58,359 nt of DNA, taken from positions 1-58,359 of the forward strand of contig JAUNMP010000004.1 in the NCBI GenBank assembly GCA_030537465.1, read 5' to 3'. Numbering within the stretch: the stretch's first letter is position 1; every line of letters begins with the position of its first letter. Below are positions 23,538-38,260 of this stretch, one piece after another. The position numbers and the translations under genes were made by a program. The notes beneath the pieces were generated by a model that did not search any database, was not told the origin of the DNA, and worked only from the letters and a program-made list of their open reading frames with translations. Source of the stretch: a bacterium (GTDB taxonomy: Bacteria; Verrucomicrobiota; Kiritimatiellia; RFP12; UBA1067).

Positions 23538-25714
23538 GATCTCCACCTCCTGTAGACAAAGACGAGACATCCAACGAGCAGAGCCAGGAAGGACGGGCCT
23601 GATGCCGCGAGCAGTCCGAAGCGGAGCCACCCCGAGCTGTCCATACCGGTCGTAACGACGTTGCCCGGCGCACGGGATGCCGTCAGGGCGTCAAGACCCG
23701 AAAGCCAAGCCAGAGAATTGAGGAACACGTCCCTATTCGCGTTTCCGCGCAGAGCAAGCGCGCCATTCGACACGAACGAGGCATCTCCCACGACCACAAG
23801 CCTCATCGGACGCAGTGCGATCTCCTTGGCATCGCCGCCGCGCTCGACCGCCACGGCCAAGGCCAACGGTCCACCCGGTTCCGAGGTCGCGTCTCGCGTC
23901 CAGGGACGCACAGACGGTTCGGATTCCCCCCACGCCGCAGAATCGGTCCGCGCAAGCTCGGTGTAGACCGCCCCCTCCACCTGGGCCGCTGGCGTGGCCG
24001 CGAGCGGCACCGCCCCTCCGAAGACCGCCGTGCCGCCAATGAGAGGACGCGTCACCGCATGCTCCGCGAAGTCGCGTACCACCACGTCCGCCCCCGAGAG
24101 CGTCCGCGGCGAGACAACCTGATAAGGAAGGACCTTCACTCCCAAATCGGCAAGAAGCGCTCCAACTCCCGCATTGGGTCCCGACGCAGCCAGCACAAGC
24201 AAACGGCCACCTGCCCTCAACCAGCCCTCAAGGCGCGCAACCTCGACCTTCGAGAACGGTTCGCGCGCTCCCGCCACCACCAGCGCCGCGCAATCATCGG
24301 GGACTGCGGGCGAGGCCGTGAGGTCAAGCAGCCCCAGCCGATAGCCATCACGCCGCAGTTCACGCGCAATGTCGCTCATACCGTTGACGGGGTCGTAGGA
24401 CGTGTAGGACATCTCGCCATGGCCCGTCGTCCAGTAGACCGTCTCCCTGAGCGCTGGCAAGGACAGCTGCTGCAGAGCCGATGCGCACGCGGCCTCCCCC
24501 GTGAAGATGCTGGATTCCCCCACGGCGACAACGTTGTTCGTCATCCCGAAGAAGAGATCCGACACCGGCACCATGACTCGACGATTGCCGCGGCGAAAGA
24601 CAAGCGTCCCCTCCTCCGCGCCCTCCCGGACAAGTGCCACCGCCCGGCCGAGCTCCCATCGGGGATCAACGTACTCAATCGCGAGGTCCGCGCCGGCAAC
24701 CGAACGCGCGGTCATCTCCAGTCCCCGCAGAAGCCGATCGACCATCCGGAACTCCGGTGCACGACGTGGCAGGAAACAGGTCACATGCACGCTACCATGC
24801 GTTTCGGCGAGGATCTGGCGTGTCCTGGCCGACGTTGTCTCGACATCCGACCGAAACGGCAACTCAAAGACAAAGTCGACACGCAGCGCTAGCATGGCAA
24901 CGAGGCCGACGAAGACAAAACCGAGCAGTGTCACGAGGATCGTGGAGAAACGCAGGCCGCGTGCGGCACGTCCCCTGAGCCTCGCCGCGGAGACGGCCTT
25001 CGACGCGGAGAAGAGCGCAAAGCACGTCAGCGCGAGATAGAACACCAACGTCGAGAACCGGACAAGTCCCGTGGACAGATCGACGATATGGGCCTCGAAC
25101 GGCATGGACGCGAACTTCATTCGCAGAATCGGCGACCAGGCGGTGGCCATCTCAAAGGCCGCATGCGGCAGCGCCAACATCAGAATCAAGGATGCGAAAG
25201 CCGCAATCGCGGCATGGCGGAAACAGGAGCTCGCCAGTAGCCCCACCGCACACCACAGCGCACATTGCAGAAGCAGCGCCAGAAAGGCCGGAATGAAGGA
25301 CAGCGTCGACAACGCCCCCCAGAAGGCCTGCGCACAGATTGGCAGAAGGATGATGGGGATCGCCAGGTACAGGCAGAGCGTCACACAGCACATCAACAAG
25401 GCACCCAGGTACTTTCCCAGCACAACCTCCCGCTCAAGCACCGGCGCCGTGAGGAGAAGTTCCAATCGTCCACTCGCACGCTCATCTGCGATGAGTCGCA
25501 TCGTCAACAGCGCCGCCAGCACCGGCAGGAATGGAACCGCGGCCGCGGCCCAAAGCGCCTCGACCGGCGTCGTTCCACCATCTCCGTGCGCGAGCGCGCG
25601 CGTGAAAAAAGCCCCAGCCAACGCCAAGAAGCCAGCCACGCTGAACGCAGTCATAGGCGACGACCAAAGTCGCCCAAACGTACGGGCGAAGATTACCCTG
25701 ATCGTCCGCGTCAT
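23534..25714 (-). CDS. ABC permease (GldF-like) fused to GldG-like auxiliary domain
   Basis: TMRLIADERASGRLELLLTAP, VLGKY; YWTTGHGE, RLVVVGDASF and NRDVFLNSLAWL motifs. Confidence 0.82.
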   Translation of the reverse strand: MTRTIRVIFARTFGRLWSSPMTAFSVAGFLALAGAFFTRALAHGDGGTTPVEALWAAAAVPFLPVLAALLTMRLIADERASGRLELLLTAPVLEREVVLGKYLGALLMCCVTLCLYLAIPIILLPICAQAFWGALSTLSFIPAFLALLLQCALWCAVGLLASSCFRHAAIAAFASLILMLALPHAAFEMATAWSPILRMKFASMPFEAHIVDLSTGLVRFSTLVFYLALTCFALFSASKAVSAARLRGRAARGLRFSTILVTLLGFVFVGLVAMLALRVDFVFELPFRSDVETTSARTRQILAETHGSVHVTCFLPRRAPEFRMVDRLLRGLEMTARSVAGADLAIEYVDPRWELGRAVALVREGAEEGTLVFRRGNRRVMVPVSDLFFGMTNNVVAVGESSIFTGEAACASALQQLSLPALRETVYWTTGHGEMSYTSYDPVNGMSDIARELRRDGYRLGLLDLTASPAVPDDCAALVVAGAREPFSKVEVARLEGWLRAGGRLLVLAASGPNAGVGALLADLGVKVLPYQVVSPRTLSGADVVVRDFAEHAVTRPLIGGTAVFGGAVPLAATPAAQVEGAVYTELARTDSAAWGESEPSVRPWTRDATSEPGGPLALAVAVERGGDAKEIALRPMRLVVVGDASFVSNGALALRGNANRDVFLNSLAWLSGLDALTASRAPGNVVTTGMDSSGWLRFGLLAASGPSFLALLVGCLVFVYRRWRS

Positions 25715-26418
25715 GCCGCACCTCCCTGGTCAGACGGGGGAACCACCAGGCCGAGAACCATCCGCACGCCGGCAGGCGTCTTTGCCCCCAGGATACGGCC
25801 ATCTCGCAGCACATAGAACTTGTTTGCCCACTGCGCGAGCTCGTCAAGTTCATGTCCGCTCACGACCACCGCGGCGAACGTGGAGACCGCCCCGACAATG
25901 CGCCCAAACGACATACGCGTCGCGGGGTCCAGCCCCGCCAGCAGATCATCCAGTATCAACAGGCGAGGACGCAGCAGGATGGCATCCGCGAGCGCAACCC
26001 GCTTGCGCAACCCGAACGACAACGTACCAATGCATTTTTCGGCATAGGGTTCAAGTCCGCAGAGTTCCATGGCCTCGGACACGCGGTGCCGAATCTTCTT
26101 TGACATTTCACCTCGAAGATTGGCCCGATAGCGCAAATACTTCTTCACGCACATATCCGGGTCCGCGGAAGCGGACTCAGGCAGATACCCTAGCATCCGA
26201 CGAAAGCGGAGAGACTGCCCGAATGCGTCCACACCATCCATGCGCACAGTTCCCGTAGACGGCGAACACAACCCCGCAAGAACCTTCATCAGAGTCGTCT
26301 TCCCCGCGCCATTCGCGCCTGCCAGGACCGCAGTCTCCCCGGGGGCGACGGAGAACGAGATATCCTCAAGAAGCGGCGCCTGACCCCAAGAAAATGATAT
26401 GTGTTGAACTTCTAACAT
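25711..26418 (-). CDS. ABC transporter ATP-binding protein (GldA-like)
   Basis: GANGAGKTT Walker A, GYLPE, LSFGLRKRV, LILDD and SGH motifs. Confidence 0.9.
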   Translation of the reverse strand: MLEVQHISFSWGQAPLLEDISFSVAPGETAVLAGANGAGKTTLMKVLAGLCSPSTGTVRMDGVDAFGQSLRFRRMLGYLPESASADPDMCVKKYLRYRANLRGEMSKKIRHRVSEAMELCGLEPYAEKCIGTLSFGLRKRVALADAILLRPRLLILDDLLAGLDPATRMSFGRIVGAVSTFAAVVVSGHELDELAQWANKFYVLRDGRILGAKTPAGVRMVLGLVVPPSDQGGAA

Positions 26419-26473
26419 TAAACGCGGATATTCTACCAAATATCCGCGGCAGATTGTAGCGGAATCGGCGCCG

Positions 26474-29400
26474 TCATTCGCTCCAGTACTTCTGACGGCG
26501 CGGCATCTCCACGCCTGGCTTGAAGCCCGTCAACGGGACGGGTTCCATCCCGTATTCCTTGCGAATGTCGTTCAACTCCAGCCAATGGAACGCACTCCGC
26601 TTGTTGTTGGTGTAGAGGAAGCGCTGCTGGTGCCAGTCGCACCACTTGTTCGCCTCGACATAGGAGCTGGAGAACGGAATCGCCAGATCGATCCACAGCG
26701 CAAACGTCCGGATTTCGTTGTCCGTCAGCGCCACGCGCCTCTTCCCGTCCTTGCCCGGATGGCCGTCCTTCAGCATCTGGTACCACTTCGACCGCAGCGC
26801 GCCGAACGAATACGGCGGTTTGAACGGCGCAAAGCTGAGTCCGTGCGCGAAGTTCACGTTCTCCGTGCACTTGCCCTTCTCGCTGAGCGCGAGGTACGCT
26901 GCCGTGTACGCGCGGTGGCTCTGGTCGTCGCTTGGCGGGATTTTGCCCGGCACGTCGCGCAGATCGAGACGGTGCGACTCGCCATGGCAGCGGACACAGC
27001 TGCGGTTGAGAATCGGCTGGACGTCCTTTTCAAAGCCGAAGCCGTCGCCGAAGAACGACGCATCGACCTTCTTGGGACGGTTCAAGCCCATCCACGCATC
27101 GAGCGAAGCGAGCGGACCTTCCTTCTCGAGCGTCTCGACGAACGGATGACGCGGACCATTCGGCAACCACGGCTTCAGGCTCTGCGGCGGACGGCGCAAC
27201 GCCAGCGCCGCCGTATTGTCCACCGCCGCCTGATGCGGGTGCTCATGGCAGCCAATGCAGCCATTCACCTCACCTGGCATCAGCGTCGACCAGCTGCGCA
27301 TCGTCTGGATCGCACAGCCGTCCTTGTCGACGAGCTGGAAGTAGACGGGCGTGCGCGCCGGCACCTTCACGCTGCAGCTGCCATCCGCCTCGACGTCCGC
27401 CTCACCCAGCACATGCTTCACGTCATAGGCGCCATTGCCCACGGAGATCGGCGTGCCGATCTTGCCCTGCGTCGAATGCCAGCCATACTGCCAGTTCCAG
27501 CCAATATGCACGGGACGGTACTCGAGACCGATCACGCGCAGCTTCTTCACCGCGCCCTTCGGAATGCCCTTGGACGCCGCACCCTCGTAGACGTTCTGCA
27601 CGTAGTACGTGCCAAACCCCTCGCGATAGTCGATCTTCGCCATCGGACGCGCCGGCGCCCGACGCGGCTTGAGCGCGATCGGCTGCAGGCAGTGGTTGCC
27701 CCAGTCGAACGCCAGCAGTTCGCGCTCCCCCTGCTCGGTCATCGCGTAGACGCCGAAGCGCGAGGAATAGGGACCCCGATAGAAGCTGCACCCCTCCGGC
27801 ATGAAGGAGACGAGCAGATCGCCGTCGCCCAGCGGATAGGGATAGGCCCATTGCGGACCAAACTGCGTGTGCATGTCAAAGGCGTTGTACTGGTAGTCAT
27901 GCGGCATGCGCGTAGGCTGCACGCCCGGCGCCGCGTTCATCGCCGCACCCGCGAGATAGTACATGCCCGGCATGTTCGTGACGGCGGGACCGCACGGATT
28001 GTCCCAGTTGCTCCAGGGAATCGTCATTACGCGATTGCCGGGAAAGGTCATCTTCACGGCATTCGTGTTCATCCCCCACACGGAGGCGGCAGGGTCGTAG
28101 GTCGAGTTCGTGTAGTCGTCGCCGTCCGCGAGACGCGACCGGGCGAGACGCCCCTTCTGTGCGACATGGTGTCCGCAGGAGATCATCATGATATCACGTG
28201 TCCCGGGAATGCCGCGTGTGTGCATCAGCGAAAACGGGAACTCCGAGTTGTTCGCGAAGAGCCCCGTCATCTTCGTACCGTCCGAATTCATCGCATAGAG
28301 CTGCTGAAGCCCGGAGGCGGAGCGGTCGTTGTACTCCCACTTCGTGAAGGAGACGCGACCGTCGTCCATCAGCTGCGGATAGAACGTCTGAACCTGGTCG
28401 AAGCCGATCCGCCGCACGTGCGAACCATCCGCCTCGCAGCGATAGAGGTTGGACACCGGCAGCGGCCAGCAGTCGACGGAATGGCAGCAGCGCGTCGACT
28501 GGAAGAGAATCGTGCCGTCCGGGAGCCAGCAGGGTTCGATGTCGCTGCAGATGAGCGTGAAGTCCTTCTCCTGCGTTCCGCCGATGTCCTCGCGACGAAC
28601 GAGGCCATTGAACGTGAGCTGGGTGATCTTCTTCGTCTCCAGATCCATCTTCCAGATGTGGTAGTCGTCCCCCTCCAGAGAGGTGCGCTTCGAAAAGAGG
28701 AGCGTCCTGGCGTCGAAGGAGAGCGCGGGGTCGCGGATGATGCCCTGCGGCTCGTCGAGGAGCACCTCCTGCGAGACCGTGCCGTCAGCGTTGATCGTCG
28801 CGCGGATCAGCTGCGAGCCGCCGCGGTAGTCGGGCACGCTCTTCCACTCCTGAAACGAGGCATCGGTCATGTCGTCGGTCGCGTGCATGATGGAATTGCC
28901 CATCACGAGATGCTTCACGTAGATGAACGCATCGCACTTCGCGCGGAACTTCGCGAGAAACGCCCTGCGCTTCTCCGCTCGCTCCTTTCTCCATTTTCCA
29001 TCTTCCATTTTCCATTGAACACTCGAGATGTCCTCGCCCAGGGGATCGGGCTTCGTCGTATCCGGCTCAACATTGGCGCAATGCGAGATATTGCTCACCG
29101 CACAGCTCTGGTAGAGCCAATCGCGCACAAGGCGCGTCTCGGGGTAGGCGATCGAGCCATCCGCATTCGGCAGCGGCAGATCCTGCGGCAGCTCACGGCC
29201 GAAGAACGACATTTCGGCAATCTGTACCGTGCAGGGTCCCTCCGCGCGAACCCGATAGGGCGGCGTCTCGAAAAGCTTCTGAATGTGCTTCTGCGCCTCC
29301 CAGGTGTAGAAACAGTAGTAGTGTCCAGCCTGGTCGTAGGAATCTTCGATGACCATCTTCACCGTGCGACCCCGGCGAGGATTCCATGTCGCATAGTTCT

Positions 29401-31534
29401 CCTTGTAGGTGTGGGACGGACGGAAATCGACATGCTCCGCCAACGGCACCCATCCCCCCTTCTCACCCTTCTCTACCCTCTCAACCTTCTCACCCTTCTC
29501 CCCCTTCACATAGAAACTCGCCTTCTTCACGCCGCGGTTCGTGTAGCTGCGCCCCGCCATCAAACGCACGCCGCCGATTTCGCGCGGCTCCGCGAAGTCG
29601 AAGACGACCTCGATCGGTTTCTTCGTCCACTTGAAGGCGCAGGCCGGGTTGATCTGGCCGTCAATCAGCAATTCAACACCCTGGTTCGGCAACGTCGCGG
29701 CCGCAGACGAGGCCTTCACCGCCGGACGCTTCAATGCCGCCTTCGGCACGAGATCCACCCAGTCGTAGTCCTCCAAGGCGCCCCACACGCCAATCGCATA
29801 GGAGTCGTTCCGCGGATCGGGATTCGTCACCATCTCCGTCCAGCTCGGCGGAGGGTCGACCAGTTCAATTCCGCTGAAGAGCTGCGGCTCCGCCGCATAG
29901 GCATGGGCCGCGGCGATGCAGTCCCAGCCAGCCGCTTTCAGCGGCGTTGAGAACGTTGAGAGGGTTGAGAGGTTGAGAGAGGCTCCAGCCTTTTGGACTT
30001 TCTGACGGATCTCAGAAAGAGCCTTCAAAATGAGGTTTTCGGCATCACGGCCCACGACACTGCACCCCAGGGTTGCCAGGAGGGCCGCCTCGTTTTCACG
30101 CGCGCAGCCGTAGGCGCCTTTCAGGTACCACCAGTTGAAACGGGGGTGGTCAAAATGTTTGAATGTTTGAATGTTTGAATGTTTGATCAAGGCCTCAAGG
30201 GGACGGATGCCGGCACGACGACGCACGATCTCCTGAAGTTTCTGGGGAGCAATCTTCTGACGAGCCTTCGCCAACGCCTCCGCCCGTTCGGCGAGGAGCG
30301 TGTACACGCTTTTGAATCCAGGAAGATCGCGCACCTGGTGCGACGGCGTCACGTATGTCGCCTCGGCGCGGAACGGCAGCGGGGCCTTGTTGACGGGATC
30401 GTCGTTCCCCACGCCGCCCAGCGCCTGATAGTCGGCGAGCGCATGGGGCTGGGGTCCACCCTGAATGCAATAGCTCATCCAATCCGTCTGCGCCGCCCGG
30501 GTCGGGGGCGGAAGGCCGTGGGGGCCGTCGCAGTGGAAGTGCCAGTAGCGAGAGGGTTGAGAATGTTGAGAGGGAGAAAGAGAGGAACCGAAGCCGAGGT
30601 GGGAACAGAGCGAGGAGAAGACCGCGAAGGTTTCCTCGGCGCCCTTCTGCGGGAAGTAGTCCTTCCATCGGCTGCCGGTCGCGAGCGCCACGCGTGGCTG
30701 TCCGAGCGCGAGCATCGCCGCATGGTTCACGCCGACGTTCAACTGGTTGAAGAAGAACTGTTCGGCATCGTGGCAGCCGCGTTCGCGGAAGACTTCGCGC
30801 AGCGACGAGATGTAGCAGTTGGGGAATGCGACCTTGATGCGCGGATCAAGCGCCTGCAGATAGGCGCTCATCGTACCGCCGCCGGACGTTCCCATCACAC
30901 CCAGCTTCGAGCAGTCGACATCGGTACGAGTCTCAAGGTAGTCAATGGCACGGATGCCATCCCAGATGCGGAAACGGGCAAAGTTCCAGCCCACGAGCCA
31001 ACCGCGTGCGCCGAGACGCGTATGCTCGGTCGAGCAGTTGTCCGTGTAGTCGTATTGCGCCGCCGACTGTCGACGCTCCCCCTGGGAGATCGGATCCCAG
31101 GCAAACGCCGCGAAGCCCGCCTTCGCCGTCATCACGAGATGCGCCGCGTAACGCGGATTCAAAATGCCGGTATCGCTGTGTCCCAGAGGCATCAGGACAC
31201 CTGGATAGGGCGCCTTGAACTTCGGGTCAGAGGGAAGCGCCAGATGGGCCGTGACGAAGACGCCGGGCTGCGACTCGAAGAGGATGTTCTCAAGGCGGAA
31301 GCCGTCACCTTGGACCTGCCCCACCACGCGGGCGTTGAGCGGCGTGCGCTCGGGGAGACCACCCAGTCCCTCGATCCAGGCCGTTCGCCAGGCCGCCTGC
31401 TTCGCCGTCAATTCGGCCGGCGTGGCGATTGCGGAAACGACGGCGTCGGCAGCCTGATCGGCGGTTGAAAGTTCATCCAGAAGATCCGCCTGTGCGCAGG
31501 CAGACAGAAAGCACACAACAAAAAGCCTTTTCAT
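26474..31534 (-). CDS. secreted fusion: alpha/beta-hydrolase (acetylxylan-esterase-like) + discoidin-like module + hydrazine synthase alpha (HzsA)-like dihaem module
   Basis: signal peptide; DPISQGER and GTSGG; TolB-like repeats (DPALSFD, EPCWLPDG); VEADGS..VPARTPVYFQLVDKDGCAIQTMRSW; CIGCH and CVRCH. Confidence 0.82.
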   Translation of the reverse strand: MKRLFVVCFLSACAQADLLDELSTADQAADAVVSAIATPAELTAKQAAWRTAWIEGLGGLPERTPLNARVVGQVQGDGFRLENILFESQPGVFVTAHLALPSDPKFKAPYPGVLMPLGHSDTGILNPRYAAHLVMTAKAGFAAFAWDPISQGERRQSAAQYDYTDNCSTEHTRLGARGWLVGWNFARFRIWDGIRAIDYLETRTDVDCSKLGVMGTSGGGTMSAYLQALDPRIKVAFPNCYISSLREVFRERGCHDAEQFFFNQLNVGVNHAAMLALGQPRVALATGSRWKDYFPQKGAEETFAVFSSLCSHLGFGSSLSPSQHSQPSRYWHFHCDGPHGLPPPTRAAQTDWMSYCIQGGPQPHALADYQALGGVGNDDPVNKAPLPFRAEATYVTPSHQVRDLPGFKSVYTLLAERAEALAKARQKIAPQKLQEIVRRRAGIRPLEALIKHSNIQTFKHFDHPRFNWWYLKGAYGCARENEAALLATLGCSVVGRDAENLILKALSEIRQKVQKAGASLNLSTLSTFSTPLKAAGWDCIAAAHAYAAEPQLFSGIELVDPPPSWTEMVTNPDPRNDSYAIGVWGALEDYDWVDLVPKAALKRPAVKASSAAATLPNQGVELLIDGQINPACAFKWTKKPIEVVFDFAEPREIGGVRLMAGRSYTNRGVKKASFYVKGEKGEKVERVEKGEKGGWVPLAEHVDFRPSHTYKENYATWNPRRGRTVKMVIEDSYDQAGHYYCFYTWEAQKHIQKLFETPPYRVRAEGPCTVQIAEMSFFGRELPQDLPLPNADGSIAYPETRLVRDWLYQSCAVSNISHCANVEPDTTKPDPLGEDISSVQWKMEDGKWRKERAEKRRAFLAKFRAKCDAFIYVKHLVMGNSIMHATDDMTDASFQEWKSVPDYRGGSQLIRATINADGTVSQEVLLDEPQGIIRDPALSFDARTLLFSKRTSLEGDDYHIWKMDLETKKITQLTFNGLVRREDIGGTQEKDFTLICSDIEPCWLPDGTILFQSTRCCHSVDCWPLPVSNLYRCEADGSHVRRIGFDQVQTFYPQLMDDGRVSFTKWEYNDRSASGLQQLYAMNSDGTKMTGLFANNSEFPFSLMHTRGIPGTRDIMMISCGHHVAQKGRLARSRLADGDDYTNSTYDPAASVWGMNTNAVKMTFPGNRVMTIPWSNWDNPCGPAVTNMPGMYYLAGAAMNAAPGVQPTRMPHDYQYNAFDMHTQFGPQWAYPYPLGDGDLLVSFMPEGCSFYRGPYSSRFGVYAMTEQGERELLAFDWGNHCLQPIALKPRRAPARPMAKIDYREGFGTYYVQNVYEGAASKGIPKGAVKKLRVIGLEYRPVHIGWNWQYGWHSTQGKIGTPISVGNGAYDVKHVLGEADVEADGSCSVKVPARTPVYFQLVDKDGCAIQTMRSWSTLMPGEVNGCIGCHEHPHQAAVDNTAALALRRPPQSLKPWLPNGPRHPFVETLEKEGPLASLDAWMGLNRPKKVDASFFGDGFGFEKDVQPILNRSCVRCHGESHRLDLRDVPGKIPPSDDQSHRAYTAAYLALSEKGKCTENVNFAHGLSFAPFKPPYSFGALRSKWYQMLKDGHPGKDGKRRVALTDNEIRTFALWIDLAIPFSSSYVEANKWCDWHQQRFLYTNNKRSAFHWLELNDIRKEYGMEPVPLTGFKPGVEMPRRQKYWSE
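28991..29018. repeat. degenerate heptamer repeat (CCATTTT x4) inside CDS
   Basis: ccatttt ccatctt ccatttt ccattga; encodes QWKMEDGKW. Confidence 0.8.
29457..29510. repeat. degenerate 9-mer repeat (CCCTTCTCA-like x6) inside CDS
   Basis: encodes VKGEKGEKVERVEKGEKG. Confidence 0.85.
29946..29980. repeat. degenerate GTTGAGAGG-like repeat x4 inside CDS
   Basis: gttgagaac gttgagagg gttgagag gttgagaga; encodes SLNLSTLSTFST. Confidence 0.8.
30154..30185. repeat. perfect octamer repeat (AATGTTTG)4 inside CDS
   Basis: four identical units read directly. Confidence 0.95.
30551..30585. repeat. short GTTGAGA-type repeat inside CDS
   Basis: agagggttgagaatgttgagagggagaaagagagg; encodes SSLSPSQHSQPS. Confidence 0.6.
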
Positions 31535-31548
31535 ATCTCCAATCCTAA

Positions 31549-31576
31549 AAGCTCGAAGCTCCAAGCTAAAAGCTAC
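31549..31576. repeat. heptamer repeat (AAGCTNN x4) at gene junction
   Basis: aagctcg aagctcc aagctaa aagctac. Confidence 0.8.
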
Positions 31577-33915
31577 TTCAACCGATGACGGGCGATGACT
31601 TCATCCTGCCAACGCTTCGAAAGCGACGTGAAACGCGCCGAGAAACCGCAGACCCGCACGATGAGATTACGATGCAGCTCGGGGTGCTTCTGCGCCTCCA
31701 GCAGCAACTCCGCGGAGTTGCAGTTCGGCTGGATCATGTGCGACCCCTTCTCGCAGAAGACGCGGAGAATCGCCGCAAGGAGCTGTGCGTTCATCGCAGA
31801 GGCGTCGAAGGTCAGATTCACGTTCGAGGCGTAGAGCTTGTCGTGTGGCAGCTTGCCGATGGAATTCATGACGGTCGTCACGCCCTCTTCGCAACGGGAT
31901 TCGCTCGGACTGAATCCCTGCGCAAGCTGATCTCCGTCACGCCGCCCATCGGGCGTCGCCCGTGTGTTCTTTCCCCAATACATGAACTCGCGATAGGTGT
32001 AGACGGCATAACGGTAGGTGTCGCCGAATCCGTTGTCCTTGCCCTCCGTCGCCTTGTTCGCCTGCTTCATGAACCAGCCCATGAGTTCGATCGGCTCGGG
32101 CGTGCCGTCCCCCCAGTAGGGCGAGGCGAGCGCGGCCCGGCGCAGCTCCTCGCCGCGCGGCCCCTTCCAGTTCGCGCGGACGACGTCGAGGAATTCCTTC
32201 ACGGTCGCAAGCTTGCGGTCGAAGCACACGCTCTTGATCGCCATCAGCGAATCCGTCACGTTGCCGATGAAGCCGAGCGTCATGATGCGCGGATGGGACA
32301 GCGAACCACCCTCGTTCGTGTCGCGCCGAGATTCAATGCAGCCGCGCAGACACATCGAATAGACCGGATGCGGGAAGACCTGCGCACTGGAGACGCCGTA
32401 CTTCGAATAGTCGTCCGTAACGCCCTTCAGATACCGCTCGAAGTTGTGCCAGTAGATCGCGCGCAACTCCTCGAAGGACTGCGCGTTGTCGAGTGGATCG
32501 AGCTCAAGTTCACAGGCCTTCAGCTTCTTGGGGTCTGGATTAAGCGTGAGTTCGAGCAGCTTGATCATCGAGAGATAATTCGCGCCGTCGACGTCCTGGA
32601 CGGAATCGACGTACCCGTTCCAGCAACCCGTACCGATGTAGCTCGTCGCATCCTCGAACGAGAAACCGTCGCGCGTGTACTGCTTCAGATAGCGGTCGTC
32701 GTTCAGAAGCGTGAAGACGGCGTGTCCCTTCATCAGCATCGTGCCGAGCTTCTCGAGATAGGCCTGCGGCGCATTCGACGAAATGCGGCAGTGGAGTTTC
32801 GGGTAGACGCAGTCCGCCTCGAGATGCGCGTCGAGGAACATCGCCGTCAGCTCGTTGTAGAGCGGCACGCCCTTCGTGTCGCATCCGCCGAGGGACATCG
32901 GGATCTCCATCTCGTGGTCGTTGTACGAATCCACCTTCGTCGAGCTGTCGTAATGGCACTCGGCCGTCAGGAGGAACTTCGTGACGAGTTCCCGCGCCGC
33001 GTCCTTCGTGAGCGTACCCGCGGCGATCTCCTTGTTGTAGAAGTCGATCAGATAGGCGTCGGGACGACCGAGCGAGAAGCAGTTCACGCCATCGACGTAA
33101 CCGAGAATCTCGCGCACGAACCAGAGCGTGTTCAGGCCCTCGTAGAAGGTCTTCGGCGGTTCCCACGGACAGCGCCGCGCCGCCTCTGCGATACGGCGCA
33201 GATTGTTGGATTGCTCGATTGTCAGATTGTCGGATTGAGAGAGAAGCCGCTGGGCCTCCGTGGCGAACTTGAGCTGGAGATCATGGATGGTGTCGAGACC
33301 GACGAGCGCCGTTTCAAGTTCCTTGCGGCCCTTCGGATCGTCGGCCGGGCACGTCTTCAACGCGGCGGCGACCTCGTCGCGCACGCCCTTGAAGCCGACG
33401 GAGAGAATCTTGCGGAACGGCGGCACGTGGTGCATGTCGTCGCAGAAAGGTCCGCAGCAGAGCGCCAGACACTCGCGCTGACGCGCCCGCTGACGCTCGA
33501 AGGCGGACTTCGGGACCAGCCCCTTCTCGTCATAGAACTTGCCGCAGAGCCTGTTGACGATACGCGCCGGACGCTTTCCGCCCCAGCCGCCGTTCACGCC
33601 CGCCTCGAAGTAGAACGGACTCTCCTTGAAAAGGAATGGCACGAAGTGGCGGCGCATCGCGAGATAGCTCTCGCGCCGCACATCGAGCGCGTCGTAGCCG
33701 GGATGTTCCCTGCAAAAGGCCGTGAGCTCTTTTTCGATGGCCTGGTAGCTTGCCGCCGAACGCGGATCCTTCACAGGATCGCTCTGGAAGCGATCGGGAT
33801 AGAACGCGCGCAGCTCCGCGCGGAAGGCCGCGTGGTCGATGGCGGACGCCGACGACAGGGCTCCCGCGAGCAGACACGTGGCAACAAGCGTACGACAAAA
33901 AGAAGGATGCTTCAT
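31573..33915 (-). CDS. glycyl radical enzyme (PFL-like family) with predicted N-terminal signal peptide
   Basis: PPKTFYEGL, SLGRPD, TGCWN Cys loop, ATPDGRR and C-terminal LIVRVCGFS Gly loop; start MKHPSFCRTLVATCLLAGALSSASA at 33915. Confidence 0.9.
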   Translation of the reverse strand: MKHPSFCRTLVATCLLAGALSSASAIDHAAFRAELRAFYPDRFQSDPVKDPRSAASYQAIEKELTAFCREHPGYDALDVRRESYLAMRRHFVPFLFKESPFYFEAGVNGGWGGKRPARIVNRLCGKFYDEKGLVPKSAFERQRARQRECLALCCGPFCDDMHHVPPFRKILSVGFKGVRDEVAAALKTCPADDPKGRKELETALVGLDTIHDLQLKFATEAQRLLSQSDNLTIEQSNNLRRIAEAARRCPWEPPKTFYEGLNTLWFVREILGYVDGVNCFSLGRPDAYLIDFYNKEIAAGTLTKDAARELVTKFLLTAECHYDSSTKVDSYNDHEMEIPMSLGGCDTKGVPLYNELTAMFLDAHLEADCVYPKLHCRISSNAPQAYLEKLGTMLMKGHAVFTLLNDDRYLKQYTRDGFSFEDATSYIGTGCWNGYVDSVQDVDGANYLSMIKLLELTLNPDPKKLKACELELDPLDNAQSFEELRAIYWHNFERYLKGVTDDYSKYGVSSAQVFPHPVYSMCLRGCIESRRDTNEGGSLSHPRIMTLGFIGNVTDSLMAIKSVCFDRKLATVKEFLDVVRANWKGPRGEELRRAALASPYWGDGTPEPIELMGWFMKQANKATEGKDNGFGDTYRYAVYTYREFMYWGKNTRATPDGRRDGDQLAQGFSPSESRCEEGVTTVMNSIGKLPHDKLYASNVNLTFDASAMNAQLLAAILRVFCEKGSHMIQPNCNSAELLLEAQKHPELHRNLIVRVCGFSARFTSLSKRWQDEVIARHRLK
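33201..33240. repeat. degenerate octamer repeat (GATTGNNN x5) inside CDS
   Basis: gattgttg gattgctc gattgtca gattgtcg gattgaga; encodes SQSDNLTIEQSNNL. Confidence 0.85.
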
Positions 33916-33920
33916 GGTCT

Positions 33921-35285
33921 TCAGTCCAGGGTTAGGCAGAGGCGCACGCCGCAGAGGGACTCCTCGGCGGGCTTGTCGGCCTTCAGCGGATACTTGTAGC
34001 CAGTGCGGTAGACGCGCAGGCGGATGTCGTAGTCCTTGCCGTCCCGGCCCTTGGTCGAGCCGCCGGCGCGGTAGTGCGAACCGCGCGTGATGCGGTAGCC
34101 GTGGTCGTAGGTCGCGGCGGGTCCGGTCGGATCGACCGCGCCTTCCTCCGGCAGCCAGAAATTGTGGTTGCCGGCCGCGTTGAGGCCCGAGTTGTCCGAC
34201 GTGCGGCCGAGCGTCGTCGTCCACTGGTGGCAGCAGCCGACCATCGCGTAGAGGCCCCACGCGTTCGGGGGCCTCATGTGCGGCTGGAATTCCTGGAAGT
34301 TCCCCCAGTTGCCGGGCGCGACGTCCGTCTGCGTGAAGAGGTAGGCGTTCGTGCTGCCCGCGCGCGCCGCGTACTCCCACTGCACGTCGGTCGGAAGGTC
34401 GAAGGATAGGCCCGAGCGGGCGCGCAGGATGCCGACGATTGACTCCGGATCGACGGCCGTCGACTTCGGGAAGTTGTATCCGTTCACGGTGTCGGTGCCG
34501 CGAGCCCGTTCGTATGAGATACCCGTGGCCACGGCCGAGAAGTTCTGGCCCAGCGTCTCGCCCCAGGCAACGCTGGACCGCGGCCGCCCCATCTGCTCGA
34601 GCTGGCCCCACGTCATCGGGTAGACGGCAAGGTAGAAGCCCTTCGTCAGCTTCACGTTGCGCGCGGACTCCTTCAGGATGTCCGAATCGAGCATGTAGTT
34701 CCAGCCCGCGTCGTGCGGGTCGGACACGTTCGTCGTGCCCGGGGTGCCGAGGCGGACGTATTCGCTGCCGCCGGAGAGCGCCTTCCATTCGTCGGATGTC
34801 GTCGGCGGCACGTAGCGGAACGCCATGTAGTCCCGGAAGAACATGGTCTTCTTCAGAGCGTTCGTGACCGAATGGTCCGCGTACGTCACCGCGCCGTCCT
34901 TCATCCGCAGCAGCATGTACGGCGGCGTACCCGAGACCTCCTCCGTGACGGAGACGCGGAACTTGAGCTGACCGTAGACGGCGCCCGCATGGTCGGTGGA
35001 CGCGCGCCACGAAATGGTCTGCCGTCCGCTCGGACGCGCCAGCCGCGTCGAGACCGATGCGTCGGAAATATAGACGTCGTCCTGGCCGTTCGACGCCGCG
35101 ATGTCGAGCCGCACGGCCTTCGCCGTCGCGCCCGGGGGCGGCGTCACCGTGAACGAGATGTCGACCGAATCGTCCCAGGGCTGGCGCGAGACCGCGACGA
35201 CGTCGCTCACCACGTAGCCCGCCGCGTCCGCGAGCGCCGTCGCCGCGAAGGCCAGGGCGCAGCCGAATCCAAGAAACTTCCTCAT
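33921..35285 (-). CDS. secreted FGE-sulfatase/SUMF1-fold protein
   Basis: signal peptide; LPTDVQWEYAARAG, PNAWGLYAMVG, RITRGS and GVRL motifs. Confidence 0.85.
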   Translation of the reverse strand: MRKFLGFGCALAFAATALADAAGYVVSDVVAVSRQPWDDSVDISFTVTPPPGATAKAVRLDIAASNGQDDVYISDASVSTRLARPSGRQTISWRASTDHAGAVYGQLKFRVSVTEEVSGTPPYMLLRMKDGAVTYADHSVTNALKKTMFFRDYMAFRYVPPTTSDEWKALSGGSEYVRLGTPGTTNVSDPHDAGWNYMLDSDILKESARNVKLTKGFYLAVYPMTWGQLEQMGRPRSSVAWGETLGQNFSAVATGISYERARGTDTVNGYNFPKSTAVDPESIVGILRARSGLSFDLPTDVQWEYAARAGSTNAYLFTQTDVAPGNWGNFQEFQPHMRPPNAWGLYAMVGCCHQWTTTLGRTSDNSGLNAAGNHNFWLPEEGAVDPTGPAATYDHGYRITRGSHYRAGGSTKGRDGKDYDIRLRVYRTGYKYPLKADKPAEESLCGVRLCLTLD

Positions 35286-35298
35286 CTCCGCGTCCTCC

Positions 35299-36609
35299 TT
35301 ATTTCACATCCAGGGTCAGCGCCAGGCGGCAGCCCGTGTTGGACGGCTCCGCGTTGTAGGTCGCCCCGTTCAGCGTTCCGTTCTCGCAGTTCGAGCGCTG
35401 GAGCATGCGGTAGGCGAGGCGACCGACGCGCGCCTTCGCGCCGCCCGGGCCGCTGTGGGAACCCCTGCAGACGCGGAACGGACCCGCGCCCATCTGCGGC
35501 ACCGGTCCGAGCGGGTCCACGCCGTCCGCGTGCTTCGCGGGGCCGCCGTTCGCGCCCAGCACCGGGCTGGTCGTCGTCCACTGGTGGCAACAGCCCACCA
35601 GGTCGTAGAGCCCCCAGGCGTTGGGCTTCTTCGTGCCGACGGCCGCGCCTGCGTTGTACGCGCCGTACTCGTTCAGCAGCGCCACGGCCGCGTCGGACGT
35701 GGCGGCCGCCGCGAAGTACTCCTCCTCGCTGCCCGCGCGTGCGGCGTACTCCCACTGCGCCTCGGTCGGGAAGTCGAAGTTCCGCCCCGTGCGCAGGCGC
35801 AGACGGCCGATCGGCGTGTCCAGGCCGATGTTGGGCGTGGCGGGGAAGCAGCAGAGGCCGAGGTCGTTCGTGCCGTCCCTGCCGCGCAGCGCGTCGTAGG
35901 ACACGTTGCGCACGGGCACCGCGTCCTGCGTGCCGACGGACCCACCCAGCAGCGCGTACTGCCTGCGCGTCATCGGGAAGACGCCCAGGAAGAACGCCTT
36001 CGTGAGCGCGATGTTCGCCACGCCCTCGCGACCGCGGTCGCCATCGGTGATGCCGAGGTCCGTCCGCTTGCCGTCGGACCCGATCCGGAACGTCGTCTTC
36101 CCCTTCTGCACGCGCCATTCGCCGGACTGCGTCGACGGGATGTAGCGGAACGCCATGTGCGTCGTCTTGTAGGTCGCGACGTTGACCTCGTTCGAGAACG
36201 CGAGCGGCTTGTAGTCGATCGCGCCGGACGCGAGGTCGACCGTCATATAGCCGACATCGGGCACGTCGTCCACGAGGGACACCATGAACGTGGCGTTCTT
36301 GATCTCCGTCGGGAACGAACCATCCTCCGGCGGCGTCCAGACGACGCGGTGGCGGCCTTCACCGAGGATGGACGCGCCCTGGAGCTGGTCGGCGGCGAGC
36401 GTGCGGTCCCCGAGCTTCACCGCCACGCGCGCGGCACGTCGGCGCGAGGCCTGTCCGTCCGTCTGCCGTGCGCGGAAGTCGATATCCACCTTGCGGCTCC
36501 ACGGCCAGCGTTGCACGACCGTGACTTCAGTGAATTCCCAGCCGCCCGCCTCTGCCAGGACGGCGGACGTCAGCGCGGCGACGGCGATCAGAAACAGGTT
36601 CTTCTTCAT
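35299..36609 (-). CDS. secreted FGE-sulfatase/SUMF1-fold protein (paralogue)
   Basis: signal peptide; QRWPW; FPTEAQWEYAARAG, KPNAWGLYDLVG, RVCRGS and GCRL motifs. Confidence 0.85.
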   Translation of the reverse strand: MKKNLFLIAVAALTSAVLAEAGGWEFTEVTVVQRWPWSRKVDIDFRARQTDGQASRRRAARVAVKLGDRTLAADQLQGASILGEGRHRVVWTPPEDGSFPTEIKNATFMVSLVDDVPDVGYMTVDLASGAIDYKPLAFSNEVNVATYKTTHMAFRYIPSTQSGEWRVQKGKTTFRIGSDGKRTDLGITDGDRGREGVANIALTKAFFLGVFPMTRRQYALLGGSVGTQDAVPVRNVSYDALRGRDGTNDLGLCCFPATPNIGLDTPIGRLRLRTGRNFDFPTEAQWEYAARAGSEEEYFAAAATSDAAVALLNEYGAYNAGAAVGTKKPNAWGLYDLVGCCHQWTTTSPVLGANGGPAKHADGVDPLGPVPQMGAGPFRVCRGSHSGPGGAKARVGRLAYRMLQRSNCENGTLNGATYNAEPSNTGCRLALTLDVK

Positions 36610-36625
36610 GAGATGCGGTCCTTCC

Positions 36626-37351
36626 CTAGCGCACGATGAGCAGCAGGCCCAGGACGCCGTCGAGCCAGGCGTCGGAAATCAGGCTGCTGCCCGAGTAGAT
36701 CTTGAAGTAGTACTTGCCGGAGGGGACGCTGGACGCCTCTAGCGGCACTGCGCCGCGCGGCCCGCCCTCGCCGTTCAGCGGCGCGAGGCCGGTCTTCTGC
36801 GTGTTCGCGCCCGTGACAAGGTTCGAGCTCGACATCCAGGTGAGGTTCGCGCCCTGCAGGCCGGGCCACCACGTCGTGTCGAACGGGACGTCCGCGGGCG
36901 CCCGGTAGATGCGCCACGGGGTCGCGTTCGTCGGGCACGTGAGCACGCGGCCGCGCGCGAACGTGCCGGGGCGCAGCTCGTAGGTCGTCGAATAGGACGT
37001 CGTCAGCTTGCCGTCGGGCGAGGCGAACGTCAGCGTCGCCGTCAACGTGTCCATGCGGAACGGTTCGGGCGGCGCGTCGAAGAGCGTGCAGGAAATCGTC
37101 GTCGCCGGCTTCGTCGCCGTCGCCGTGACGTCGTAGTGCCGGCCCTTCACGCGCAGCGCCGCCGCGGTCGCGCCCGCCGGCGCGAGACCGTCCGCCCAGT
37201 CGAGCGGAAAGGTCAGCGTACCGGAATCCAGATACCGCGGCACGCCGGCCTGCAGATCCAGCGAGACGGCGTTCGACTCCGCCGCCCCGGCTGCCCAGGG
37301 AACCAGAAGTCCCACGAGCACGCAGGCCCTGATCCGTGTCTTCCACTTCAT
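36626..37351 (-). CDS. hypothetical secreted protein ending GLLLIVR
   Basis: GGAGG SD before ATG 37351; signal peptide AGA-AE; beta-rich composition. Confidence 0.7.
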   Translation of the reverse strand: MKWKTRIRACVLVGLLVPWAAGAAESNAVSLDLQAGVPRYLDSGTLTFPLDWADGLAPAGATAAALRVKGRHYDVTATATKPATTISCTLFDAPPEPFRMDTLTATLTFASPDGKLTTSYSTTYELRPGTFARGRVLTCPTNATPWRIYRAPADVPFDTTWWPGLQGANLTWMSSSNLVTGANTQKTGLAPLNGEGGPRGAVPLEASSVPSGKYYFKIYSGSSLISDAWLDGVLGLLLIVR

Positions 37352-37504
37352 CCGTCTACCTCCATTCAAAATCCACAAAAATTTAAATCAAGGTAATTAT
37401 CGCAAATATCCACTGGTTCATCATTGCACCAGAACGCCTAAAAAGTGTACAATCTGACCACACGAGTAAATATGATACAATAAGTGGCAGATGACAAGAA
37501 GACC
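37352..37504. promoter_or_regulatory. AT-rich divergent promoter region
   Basis: AT-rich gap between divergent genes; TGaTACAAT at 37473-37481 on the plus strand. Confidence 0.55.
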
Positions 37505-38260
37505 ATGACGCTAAAGGAAAAGAGAACGTTCCAGTCAAACTTCCTGCAGAGAGCAGGACAAAACGCGGAGATCATCCGCCAGATGGCGGATGCGGTGCCG
37601 GGCGTGCTCTTCAACATCGTGGACGCCGACGAGCGCATTGTCGCGTTCAATCGTGCGAACTGCGAGGTCTGCAATTTCAAGGACGAGATGGAGGTTGTCG
37701 GCGAGAAGGTCGCGGACCTCTTTCCCGCCGTCCTCGCCGAAGCCTATCTGTCGCTCTACCGCGAAGCGCGCGAATTGGGAACACCCATCCTCAACCGTGT
37801 CACCGCGCATGGAGCGGACCGCTCAACCGATTTCCGCGTTGCGAACGTGTTTCCCCTTCGAGATGCCGCCGGCGCGGTGATCGGCACGGCGGTGTTCTAC
37901 CGCGTCGTCGACCAGCAGCACGCCAAGCCGGACTGGTATGGCGCCATCCAGAAGGCCGTCTCCCACATCGACGCGCACTTCCGCGAACGGCTCTCGCTTG
38001 CGGATCTCGCCCGCATCTCGGGCATGAGCACCACCACGTTCCGCCGCGTCTTCGCCCAGGTCATGGAGATGACGCCCGGCGACTACATCGCCACCATCCG
38101 CATCAACCGCGCACGGAAACTGCTCACGACGACGGACATGAAGATCTTCGACATCGCCTTCGAATGCGGCTTCTATGACCAGAGCCACTTCATCCGCACG
38201 TTCAAGCGTCTTCGGAAGCAGACCCCGGCCCAATACCGCCGCGCCCACTTCAGAAAATGA
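37484..38260 (+). CDS. AraC family regulator with N-terminal PAS domain
   Basis: PAS-like DADERIVAFN...VVGEKVADLFP; C-terminal double HTH with IAFECGFYDQSHF; start may be ATG 37505. Confidence 0.92.
   Translation: MADDKKTMTLKEKRTFQSNFLQRAGQNAEIIRQMADAVPGVLFNIVDADERIVAFNRANCEVCNFKDEMEVVGEKVADLFPAVLAEAYLSLYREARELGTPILNRVTAHGADRSTDFRVANVFPLRDAAGAVIGTAVFYRVVDQQHAKPDWYGAIQKAVSHIDAHFRERLSLADLARISGMSTTTFRRVFAQVMEMTPGDYIATIRINRARKLLTTTDMKIFDIAFECGFYDQSHFIRTFKRLRKQTPAQYRRAHFRK

Follow-up and report, generated by a model that had tools for sequence, protein, structure and literature searches.

The window analysed here, a stretch of 58,359 nucleotides of DNA from a member of the Kiritimatiellia, carries a gene for a glycyl radical enzyme (GRE) of 780 amino acids whose N-terminus resembles an export signal. 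Sequence reading confirmed the open reading frame and start codon given in an earlier note on this DNA, and the ATG lies 5 nt past the TGA of the upstream gene at 33921-35285. The gene belongs to a co-directional run next to a divergent PAS/AraC-type gene, whose position makes it a candidate regulator of the run. Long spurious open frames arise in the high-GC DNA of this region. The features discussed below are as follows.

37484-38260, (+): PAS/AraC-type regulator gene, divergent (HTH_18 3.2e-25, PAS_4 1.2e-11)
36606-37346, (-): first gene of the co-directional run, 246 aa, no Pfam match
35299-36609, (-): second gene with an FGE-sulfatase domain, 436 aa (PF03781 5.6e-12)
33921-35285, (-): FGE-sulfatase (SUMF1-like) gene, 454 aa, signal-like N-terminus MRKFLGFGCALAFAATALADA (PF03781 2.7e-08)
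31573-33915, (-): signal-bearing GRE gene, 780 aa, stop codon at 31573-31575
33841-33915, (-): predicted Sec-type signal peptide, residues 1-25, MKHPSFCRTLVATCLLAGALSSASA (by-eye reading, AlphaFold, homologue comparison)
31576-33840, (-): mature GRE, residues 26-780 (Pfam, AlphaFold, Foldseek)
32617-32628, (-): Cys loop GCWN, G430-N433, with C431 the predicted thiyl-radical Cys
31639-31656, (-): glycyl radical loop RVCGFS, R754-S759, with G757 the predicted radical site
26474-31534, (-): exported two-CXXCH protein, ~1686-1696 aa, downstream of the GRE gene (Pfam and motifs)
Contig C226, 10562-11425: GRE activase gene (TIGR02494 and radical-SAM motif)

Read by eye, the N-terminus MKHPSFCRTLVATCLLAGALSSASA/ID has the three parts of a Sec-type signal, namely a basic n-region (K2 and R8), an 11-residue hydrophobic core (TLVATCLLAGA) and A-S-A at positions -3 to -1, after which cleavage is predicted; a weak lipobox-like VATC with its cysteine at C14 offers a less likely alternative. 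Inspection found no twin-arginine motif of the form [ST]RRxF[LI] before the core, where there is a single Arg only. In the AlphaFold model, pLDDT falls below 50 at residues 1-4 and 14-25 and averages 92 over the full length. No further in-frame start triplet (ATG, GTG or TTG) occurs in codons 2-27. Signal classes are assigned throughout by our own regular-expression and hydropathy rules together with reading by eye.

Fold and radical motifs of the enzyme

The protein is a genuine GRE with the PFL-like ten-stranded barrel fold. Pfam places both the PFL-like domain (PF02901, 4.2e-75) and the Gly_radical domain (PF01228, 7.4e-20) on it, and the AlphaFold model (pLDDT 92.1, pTM 0.91) gave 96 PDB matches at E <= 0.001 in Foldseek, with a TM score of 0.81 to glycerol dehydratase 1r8w and of ~0.8 to glycerol and propanediol dehydratases, CutC, PflD and HypD alike. 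The likeness to these eliminases and dehydratases (B12-independent 1r8w, propanediol dehydratase 5i2g/9rco, the choline TMA-lyase CutC, the hydroxyproline dehydratase HypD and the PflD/YbiW anhydro-sugar-phosphate dehydratases) covers the full barrel, with TM scores of 0.78-0.82, and extends to the RVxG[FY] glycyl loop, the aligned catalytic Cys and dependence on a TIGR02494-type activase, although sequence identity is only ~20%. The enzyme further differs from them in two clade-specific motifs, D-x-x-H-H (159-163) and K-x-H-C-R (373-377), and in its predicted export signal, the known enzymes being cytoplasmic or microcompartment-bound.

Recomputed coordinates place both radical loops where the earlier note had them, at residues 754-759 (RVCGFS) and 430-433 (GCWN). 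The Gly loop is RVCGFS in 108 of the 121 sequences and KVCGFS in a further 8, and alignment A1 shows no variation at C756, G757, F758 or S759. Among 44 aligned members C431, W432 and G434 are invariant, as is G757. In the alignment with PDB structures C431 pairs with the catalytic Cys of CutC, and N433 with the Glu two residues on. GRE eliminases carry a GCxE Cys loop in which this Glu, at C+2, is the general base; the loop with Glu is not present in our enzyme, which has Asn433 instead, and the 121 sequences have Asn (104), Asp (10), Thr (2) or Ser (1) at this position, with 4 sequences giving no regex match. The invariance of Gly757 and Cys431, together with the coupling of the family to activases described below, disfavours the non-radical function that had been put forward as one option for this protein.

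Pyruvate formate-lyase has an adjacent Cys-Cys pair in its Cys loop. We rejected this identity for our enzyme, which has a single Cys in the loop and scores 51.3 bits against a TIGR01255 cut-off of 994.2; the genome's true PFL sits on contig C18. The PFL2-3 subfamily model TIGR01774 gave 271.9 bits, below its cut-off of 678.2. Microcompartment targeting was likewise rejected, with no PF00936 shell gene in the genome (91% complete).

The signal-bearing family and its neighbours

The earlier note had held that homologues lacking the extension would speak against export. The 120 closest homologues, which share 57-94% identity and come from gut and rumen Kiritimatiellia, mostly carry one: by our own regex rule a signal-like extension precedes the conserved [FL]R.ELRAFYP motif in 110, comprising 68 Sec-like, 22 RR and 18 RK/KR types and 2 Sec-like signals ahead of fused domains. 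The export signal proposed for the 780-aa protein stands as a predicted one of Sec type, with related extensions across its family. TIGR01409 scored over its cut-off in three of six RR-type homologues tested. The next relatives (27-45% identity) have no such extension and only 0-20 residues, mostly 0-10, before the motif, compared to 27 in our enzyme, and a sister clade of ~750-aa GREs begins at the ELRAFY motif, at about residue 27 of our protein. In a FastTree phylogeny of 142 rows the signal-bearing family forms a single clade with support of 100, nested among signal-less GREs, while a second signal-bearing GRE clade, to which the genome's own C98 and C150 members belong, has a separate origin. 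By its distribution, the predicted export signal is a clade-specific addition and more than chance. Sec- and Tat-type signals interleave inside the family on the tree, a pattern that would be compatible with a GRE for which cytoplasmic folding is dispensable.

The gene downstream of the GRE encodes a protein with a signal peptide, an esterase-like region, an F5/8 type C domain, a propeller (by eye) and an HZS_alpha middle domain (Pfam 4e-31), and its two CXXCH motifs are CIGCH at residue 1436 and CVRCH at residue 1523. Homologues of its residues ~580/606-1686 follow the GRE in five related loci (L037, L038, L039, L043 and L049) and lie upstream of it in a sixth (L040); judged from these loci, the CXXCH protein is a conserved partner of the closest orthologues of our GRE. 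The FGE-sulfatase protein encoded directly upstream had no match in 16 related loci. Neighbours otherwise vary from locus to locus, the exceptions being the CXXCH protein in close orthologues and an activase in the clade at 59-63% identity, and clustering of 28 stretches, with a crude ORF caller on high-GC DNA, gave no recurrent neighbours beyond GRE, activase and CXXCH protein. In some family members the GRE is joined to a GH16, WbsX/GH99-like, GH2 or GHL domain behind a Sec-like signal, and fusion to a 3-keto-disaccharide-hydrolase domain also occurs. The suggestion that the GRE is possibly periplasmic is supported, and strengthened by the family-wide signal, the glycoside hydrolase fusions and the exported CXXCH neighbour.

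An activase with a Tat-like signal

A neighbouring activase had been reported as missing. This holds for the window, where no stop-to-stop frame of at least 150 aa contains CxxxCxxC and the TIGR02494 activase model had no match on the window's contig, but not for the genome: the genome-wide search that the earlier note had proposed, including signal-bearing activases, recovered four activase loci. The one on C226 is an ordinary TIGR02494-type activase (236.4 bits, cut-off 174.35) with CX3CX2C (CPLKCLWC), GGE and one ferredoxin-like Cys cluster, and the idea of activation by a route without an activase was not borne out. In this genome GRE and activase are unlinked and lie on different contigs.

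Of the genome's four activases, the C226 protein alone is extended at its N-terminus, by 27 residues that resemble a Tat signal and include an AWA site (MACARRDFCRGSIAALAALGTVPFAWA/K). By regex, Tat-like extensions occur in 114 of its 120 best homologues, 36 with RR and 78 with RK/KR. The profile evidence is weaker, with TIGR01409 over its cut-off in none of four activases tested and one sub-threshold match to Pfam TAT_signal among six activase N-termini. Genes for TatC and TatA are present in the genome, and an unfiltered regex finds Tat-like N-termini on ~270 of its ORFs; by eye, many of these are of Gfo/Idh/MocA type, and RK variants fall in the same apparent families as RR ones. The C226 protein shares CX3CX2C, GGE and the ferredoxin-like cluster with the PFL-AE/TIGR02494 activases (PflA, CutD, HypD activase) and differs from them by its predicted Tat-like signal, and it is this signal on the activase itself that is new.

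Enzyme and activase are linked in relatives. GREs of our family (59-63% identity) lie directly upstream of an activase of the C226 clade in five loci (L021, L022, L024, L026 and L041), and 12 of 15 genomes with a locus of the GRE family have an activase of this clade. In all the adjacent pairs with a Sec-type GRE that could be read, the activase bears a signal; L027, L028 and L032 were read directly, and for L022 the signal is inferred from a similar fusion protein. Signal-less activases of the clade occur in L023, L025, L029, L033, L055 and L056, with no hidden upstream frame found in L023, L025, L033, L055 or L056. In genomes G201 and G203 a Sec-type GRE was found with only a signal-less activase, which counts against a strict rule that Sec-type GREs, as classed here, go with signal-bearing activases.

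In a class-wide sample of 201 genomes, our GRE family was found at E <= 1e-60 in G000 only and the activase clade (>=61% identity) only in G000, G085, G095 and G049. Both families being rare in this sample, species representatives tell little about them. The bulk of the diversity is in metagenome proteins.

Proposed location and activation of the enzyme

The GRE clade is an uncharacterised one of gut and rumen Kiritimatiellia. Since enzyme and activase both bear predicted export signals, the chemistry may work in the periplasm on sugars, and from evidence that is all computational we lean, with modest confidence, towards an extracytoplasmic GRE/activase system for glycan breakdown, most likely periplasmic. 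The GRE preprotein would cross the membrane by Sec and fold outside the cytoplasm, while the activase would fold in the cytoplasm, Fe-S clusters included, before export by Tat. This dedicated C226 activase would then install the glycyl radical on G757, and the thiyl radical at C431 would attack a carbohydrate-derived substrate that exported glycan-degrading enzymes around it produce. On a sugar, this would probably bring about radical elimination or cleavage of a C-O bond, with Asn433 in place of Glu. The GRE fold and motifs, the export-type N-termini across both the enzyme and the activase family, their operon linkage in relatives, the genome's Tat genes and the glycoside hydrolase fusions are shown by the sequence analysis, whereas export itself, extracytoplasmic activation, the substrate class and the delivery of SAM and low-potential electrons to the activase are what we infer here. 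The fuller claim of a complete GRE and radical-SAM activase system outside the cytoplasm, achieving radical cleavage of glycan-derived substrates in gut Kiritimatiellia, we put forward tentatively, as plausible but short of probable.

Such a system would call for SAM and a low-potential electron in the periplasm, or for Tat to carry a pre-reduced, SAM-loaded activase that would fire a single time for each enzyme molecule. A search of the genome for an extracytoplasmic source of SAM or low-potential electrons found none, with one MetK and no flavodoxin over cut-off; the exported two-CXXCH neighbour could be part of an electron path. Tat exports cofactor-loaded enzymes such as the periplasmic glucose-fructose oxidoreductase with its NADP, Fe-S enzymes and molybdoenzymes, and by analogy the C226 activase would likewise be a folded Fe-S protein, maybe with a nucleotide-type ligand. 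GRE activases consume SAM and do not retain it, which would limit a pre-loaded activase to a single reaction, and we know of no case of a Tat-exported, SAM-loaded, single-use activase. Several observations count against the proposed system: most activase signals have RK and not RR, the curated Tat profiles are weak on both the GRE and the activase families, the activase clade has signal-less members, GRE and activase are unlinked in this genome, the search for a supply of SAM and electrons was negative, and neighbours vary between loci as described above.

The likeliest of the alternatives, although unlikely in our view, is that the radical is installed in the cytoplasm and export follows, with only Tat-type GREs leaving the cell interior in active form and Sec-type ones crossing unfolded and unactivated, to serve a non-radical role (binding or scaffold) or to be inactive. 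In its favour, neither SAM nor reductant is known outside the cytoplasm, L023 and L045 each combine a Tat-like GRE with a signal-less activase, and the finding of only a signal-less clade activase alongside a Sec-type GRE in G201 and G203 also fits. However, the Sec-type subclade of our enzyme retains G757, C431 and the entire Gly loop, the Sec-type pairs with a signal-bearing activase (three read directly, L022 inferred) point the other way, and cytoplasmic activation leaves the export-type extension on 114 of 120 activases unexplained.

It seems quite improbable to us that the N-terminal segments are membrane anchors or non-functional leaders that leave the catalytic domains at or in the cytoplasm. 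This could be proposed since the localisation of both proteins is a sequence-based prediction, the Tat profile models mostly fail and RK stands in place of RR in most activases, but A-x-A sites follow the hydrophobic cores (ASA in the GRE, AWA in the activase), Sec- and Tat-type members replace each other inside a single family, and the fusions to GH16, GH2 and 3-keto-disaccharide-hydrolase domains, like the CXXCH neighbour, fit an extracytoplasmic site. Moreover, where a hydrophobic core comes after a basic n-region, the positive-inside rule predicts an N-in, C-out topology, which would place the domains outside. That the start codon is an annotation artefact, with the true start downstream and an ordinary cytoplasmic or microcompartment GRE as the product, is scarcely credible. 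Spurious long frames of the kind noted above would allow it in principle, yet past codon 1 no ATG, GTG or TTG occurs before the conserved motif at residue 31, and the motif region must be translated given its conservation in homologues; extensions of like character but differing sequence are found in 110 of 120 homologues, and the genome has no BMC shell gene.

Because they depend on SAM and a low-potential reductant and must be shielded from oxygen, GREs and radical-SAM enzymes are regarded as confined to the cytoplasm. To our knowledge, characterised GREs are cytoplasmic or microcompartment-bound, GRE activases are cytoplasmic and no extracytoplasmic radical-SAM enzyme has been described; among the matches listed in a full-text search of the literature, none described an exported GRE or radical-SAM enzyme. 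A known parallel is the anaerobic sulfatase-maturating enzyme, a radical-SAM enzyme that makes a stable formylglycine in the cytoplasm before Sec export and likewise serves exported glycan-degrading enzymes in anaerobes. In the system proposed here, in contrast, the product would be a radical, which calls for a folded protein, and a signal is predicted on the activase itself. A family with export signals on enzyme and activase alike, set in glycan-degradation loci and joined to glycoside hydrolases, would bring radical enzymology into the periplasm, raise the testable question of how SAM and electrons are supplied there, and suggest a non-hydrolytic radical route for the breakdown of dietary or host glycans in animal guts.

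Contigs from RNA libraries covered parts of the GRE gene with 93-100% likeness in all four of the runs (4/4); such contigs may derive from relatives and are no proof of transcription. The gene itself is near-identical in bovine and pig gut metagenomes.

The glycyl radical enzyme and its neighbors

P0001, the glycyl radical enzyme (GRE) under study, has Pfam matches to PFL-like (4.2e-75) and Gly_radical (7.4e-20), with the motifs RVCGFS and GCWN at residues 754 to 759 and 430 to 433, exactly where an earlier note had placed them. The top NCBIfam model was TIGR01774, with a score of 272 bits where its cut-off is 678, and scores for all named NCBIfam equivalogs fell far under their cut-offs; judged by its sequence, P0001 is a divergent GRE. 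The ATG starts 5 nt past the upstream gene's stop. Because no ATG, GTG, or TTG is found among codons 2 to 27, the N-terminal segment must be translated.

21798-26439 (-): ABC transporter set downstream of the run (ATPase, ABC-2 permease with fused ABC_transp_aux and DUF4350, DUF4340 protein)
26474-31564 (-): 1696-aa signal-bearing protein; esterase-like region, F5/8 type C domain, HZS_alpha middle domain (4e-31), CXXCH motifs at residues 1436 and 1523
31573-33915 (-): P0001, GRE of 780 aa
33921-35285 and 35299-36609 (-): two signal-bearing FGE-sulfatase (SUMF1-like) proteins, directly upstream of the GRE

The GRE belongs to a co-directional run comprising a 246-aa protein without a family match, the two FGE-sulfatase-domain proteins, the GRE, and the 1696-aa protein; a PAS/AraC regulator gene diverges from this run. 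At each of the five close-orthologue loci (L037, L038, L039, L043, and L049), the GRE is followed by a homolog of residues ∼580/606 to 1686 of the 1696-aa protein. The two FGE-sulfatase proteins had no match in the 16 related loci searched. The ABC set resembles gliding-motility-type ABC systems. Other genes of the window encode GH106, GH123, GH88-like, heparinase-like, and 3-keto-disaccharide hydrolase proteins and a Tat-type metallophosphoesterase. No BMC shell gene was found in G000, the genome that contains the window.

An AlphaFold model of P0001, made from 44 family sequences, has a mean pLDDT of 92.1 and a pTM of 0.91, with pLDDT under 50 only at residues 1 to 4 and 14 to 25. Foldseek grouped it with glycerol dehydratase (1r8w), propanediol dehydratase, CutC, PflD, and HypD (TM of ∼0.8, ∼20% identity). 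CutC was the top PDB sequence match (3.6e-59), and in this alignment Cys431 lies opposite the catalytic Cys and Asn433 opposite the Glu two residues on. Cys431, Trp432, Gly434, and Gly757 are invariant in the 44-sequence alignment. Across P0001 and its 120 best homologs, the residue two after the Cys is Asn in 104, Asp in 10, Thr in 2, and Ser in 1, with 4 giving no regex match; in the wider clade of ∼750-aa GREs it is Glu, Asp, Ser, Gly, or Asn. Both the wider clade and the target family carry D-x-x-H-H and K-x-H-C-R motifs, which are absent from the classical eliminases.

Signals and fusions in two GRE families

The 120 best homologs of P0001 (57 to 94% identity), the named ones being Kiritimatiellae MAGs and "Candidatus Colisoma," were assigned to signal classes with a hydropathy and regex rule devised in this analysis.

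N-terminal classes among the 120 GRE homologs (hydropathy/regex rule)
Sec-like: 68
Tat-like, RR: 22
Tat-like, RK or KR: 18
Sec-like signal ahead of a fused domain: 2
No uncharged stretch of at least 12 (some Tat-like by eye): 5
N-terminal fragment: 3
Fewer than 15 residues ahead of the motif: 2

Searching 1.84 billion cluster representatives gave 4,828 matches, and the next relatives (27 to 45% identity, ∼750 aa) start at a conserved ELRAFY motif, the extension being absent. On a 142-row FastTree (SH-like support values, no bootstrap), in which the signal labels missed three Tat-type rows and flagged one (P0349) wrongly, the signal-bearing target family forms a single clade (support 100) inside a 73-row clade of signal-less GREs (support 100), and Sec and Tat types are intermixed within it. 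A second signal-bearing clade (clade B), which includes the G000 paralogues on contigs C98 and C150 with their GC[YF]E and RVAGWN motifs, is nested among other signal-less GREs.

The clade-B copies of G000 (GC[YF]E, RV[AC]GWN) have Sec- or Tat-like signals on C98, C150, C394, C326, and C15 (loci L073, L015, L016, L071, and L072, respectively), the C394 copy being broken into two ORFs, one of 275 aa that has an RR signal and one of 509 aa. Fusions in the target family involve GH16 (P0071), WbsX/GH99-like (P0015), GH2 (P0393), and GHL (P0394) domains; in clade B, a 3-keto-disaccharide-hydrolase domain (C15) or a ∼950-aa region without a family match (C326) precedes the GRE. Right behind the signal, P0019, P0021, P0085, and many other homologs have a pair of Cys residues (YPDECHxxCKD or YPPGYCRxxCQS), which could form an extracytoplasmic disulfide; P0001 has YPDRFQSDPVKD in its place.

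The activase and its linkage to the GREs

The window indeed holds no radical-SAM gene, CxxxCxxC being absent from every frame of at least 150 aa. The activase itself is not missing: a genome-wide search of G000 (5.19 Mb, 438 contigs, 91% complete) gave four activase loci, one of them signal-bearing, together with eleven PFL-like matches spread over ten contigs. The activases on C132, C433, and C18 have N-termini like those of ordinary cytoplasmic ones.

C226:10562-11425: activase with the N-terminus MACARRDFCRGSIAALAALGTVPFAWA/KVNGRP, then the core and the radical-SAM motif CPLKCLWC

With TIGR02494 (cut-off, 174 bits), the C226 activase reaches 236 bits. By the regex rule, a Tat-like extension is present in 114 of its 120 best homologs (70 to 99% identity; 36 RR and 78 RK/KR). 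G000 encodes TatC and two TatA proteins, and an unfiltered regex found ∼270 ORFs with Tat-like N-termini (209 RR and 61 RK). Judged by eye, RK and RR forms fall in the same apparent families, with "TRKxF" beside "TRRxF." Many of these ORFs (for example, window 8351-9457, minus strand) resemble, by eye, Gfo/Idh/MocA oxidoreductases, metallophosphoesterases, and TIM-barrel isomerase-like proteins. TIGR01409 exceeded its cut-off for 3 of 6 RR-type GRE homologs and none of 4 activases, and Pfam TAT_signal gave one sub-threshold match among six activase N-termini; the curated Tat profiles are poor witnesses here.

In related MAGs, a target-family GRE (59 to 63% identity) lies directly upstream of a C226-clade activase at L021, L022, L024, L026, and L041. 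The same arrangement with a clade-B GRE occurs at L023, L027, L028, L053, L057, L066, and in G095, and at L032 the two are near each other. A C226-clade activase (at least 62% identity) was found in 12 of the 15 genomes with a target-family locus, and at this threshold not in G207, G208, and the small G209.

Adjacent GRE/activase pairs with both N-termini legible
Sec-type GRE, signal-bearing activase: L027, L028, L032; L022 (GH16 fusion, GRE signal inferred from the similar protein P0071)
Tat-like GRE, signal-bearing activase: L024, L026, L041
Tat-like GRE, signal-less activase: L023, L045

Signal-less members of the C226 clade (60 to 76% identity to the C226 protein) were seen at L023, L025, L029, L033, L055, L056, and L077 and are genuine; no hidden upstream frame was present at the five loci checked (L023, L025, L033, L055, and L056). 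In G049, a signal-less activase adjoins one clade-B GRE, and the clade-B GRE with a legible N-terminus in this genome, a second one, is signal-less. In G201 and G203, whose orthologues of P0001 (83% and 81% identity) are of the Sec type, only a signal-less C226-clade activase was seen. These two genomes and the signal-less clade members argue against a strict rule of pairing. Since such members exist, the activase export signal is, on these sequences, one that has been repeatedly gained or lost, as on the GREs.

Proposed activation outside the cytoplasm

All radical motifs in the GRE, family-wide export-type N-termini on GRE and activase, coupling of the two in operons of relatives, Tat genes, and a glycan-degrading context are the observations at hand, every one of them computational. 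The possibly periplasmic GRE suggested earlier is supported, the enzyme being probably periplasmic; the new activation route suggested with it is not supported, the activase being conventional in type and probably itself exported. The GRE would be exported by Sec and the activase, loaded with Fe-S, by Tat, and the glycyl radical would be installed outside the cytoplasm. The GRE may then act on a sugar, by radical elimination or by cleavage of a C-O bond, in analogy to diol dehydratases, the PflD/YbiW sugar dehydratases, and class III ribonucleotide reductase. Among G000 genes and locus neighbors, no source of SAM or low-potential electrons outside the cytoplasm was found. Because PFL activase shows single-turnover behavior, one possibility is that a pre-reduced, SAM-loaded activase fires once after export; an electron path through the CXXCH neighbor is wholly speculative. 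Full-text literature searches gave, among the papers listed, no description of an exported GRE or radical-SAM enzyme.

Fourteen metagenome runs from animal guts (bovine, pig, and others) contain near-identical DNA, each with at least 80% of the sampled words. Contigs from all four RNA-library runs examined span parts of the GRE gene, a weak hint of transcription.
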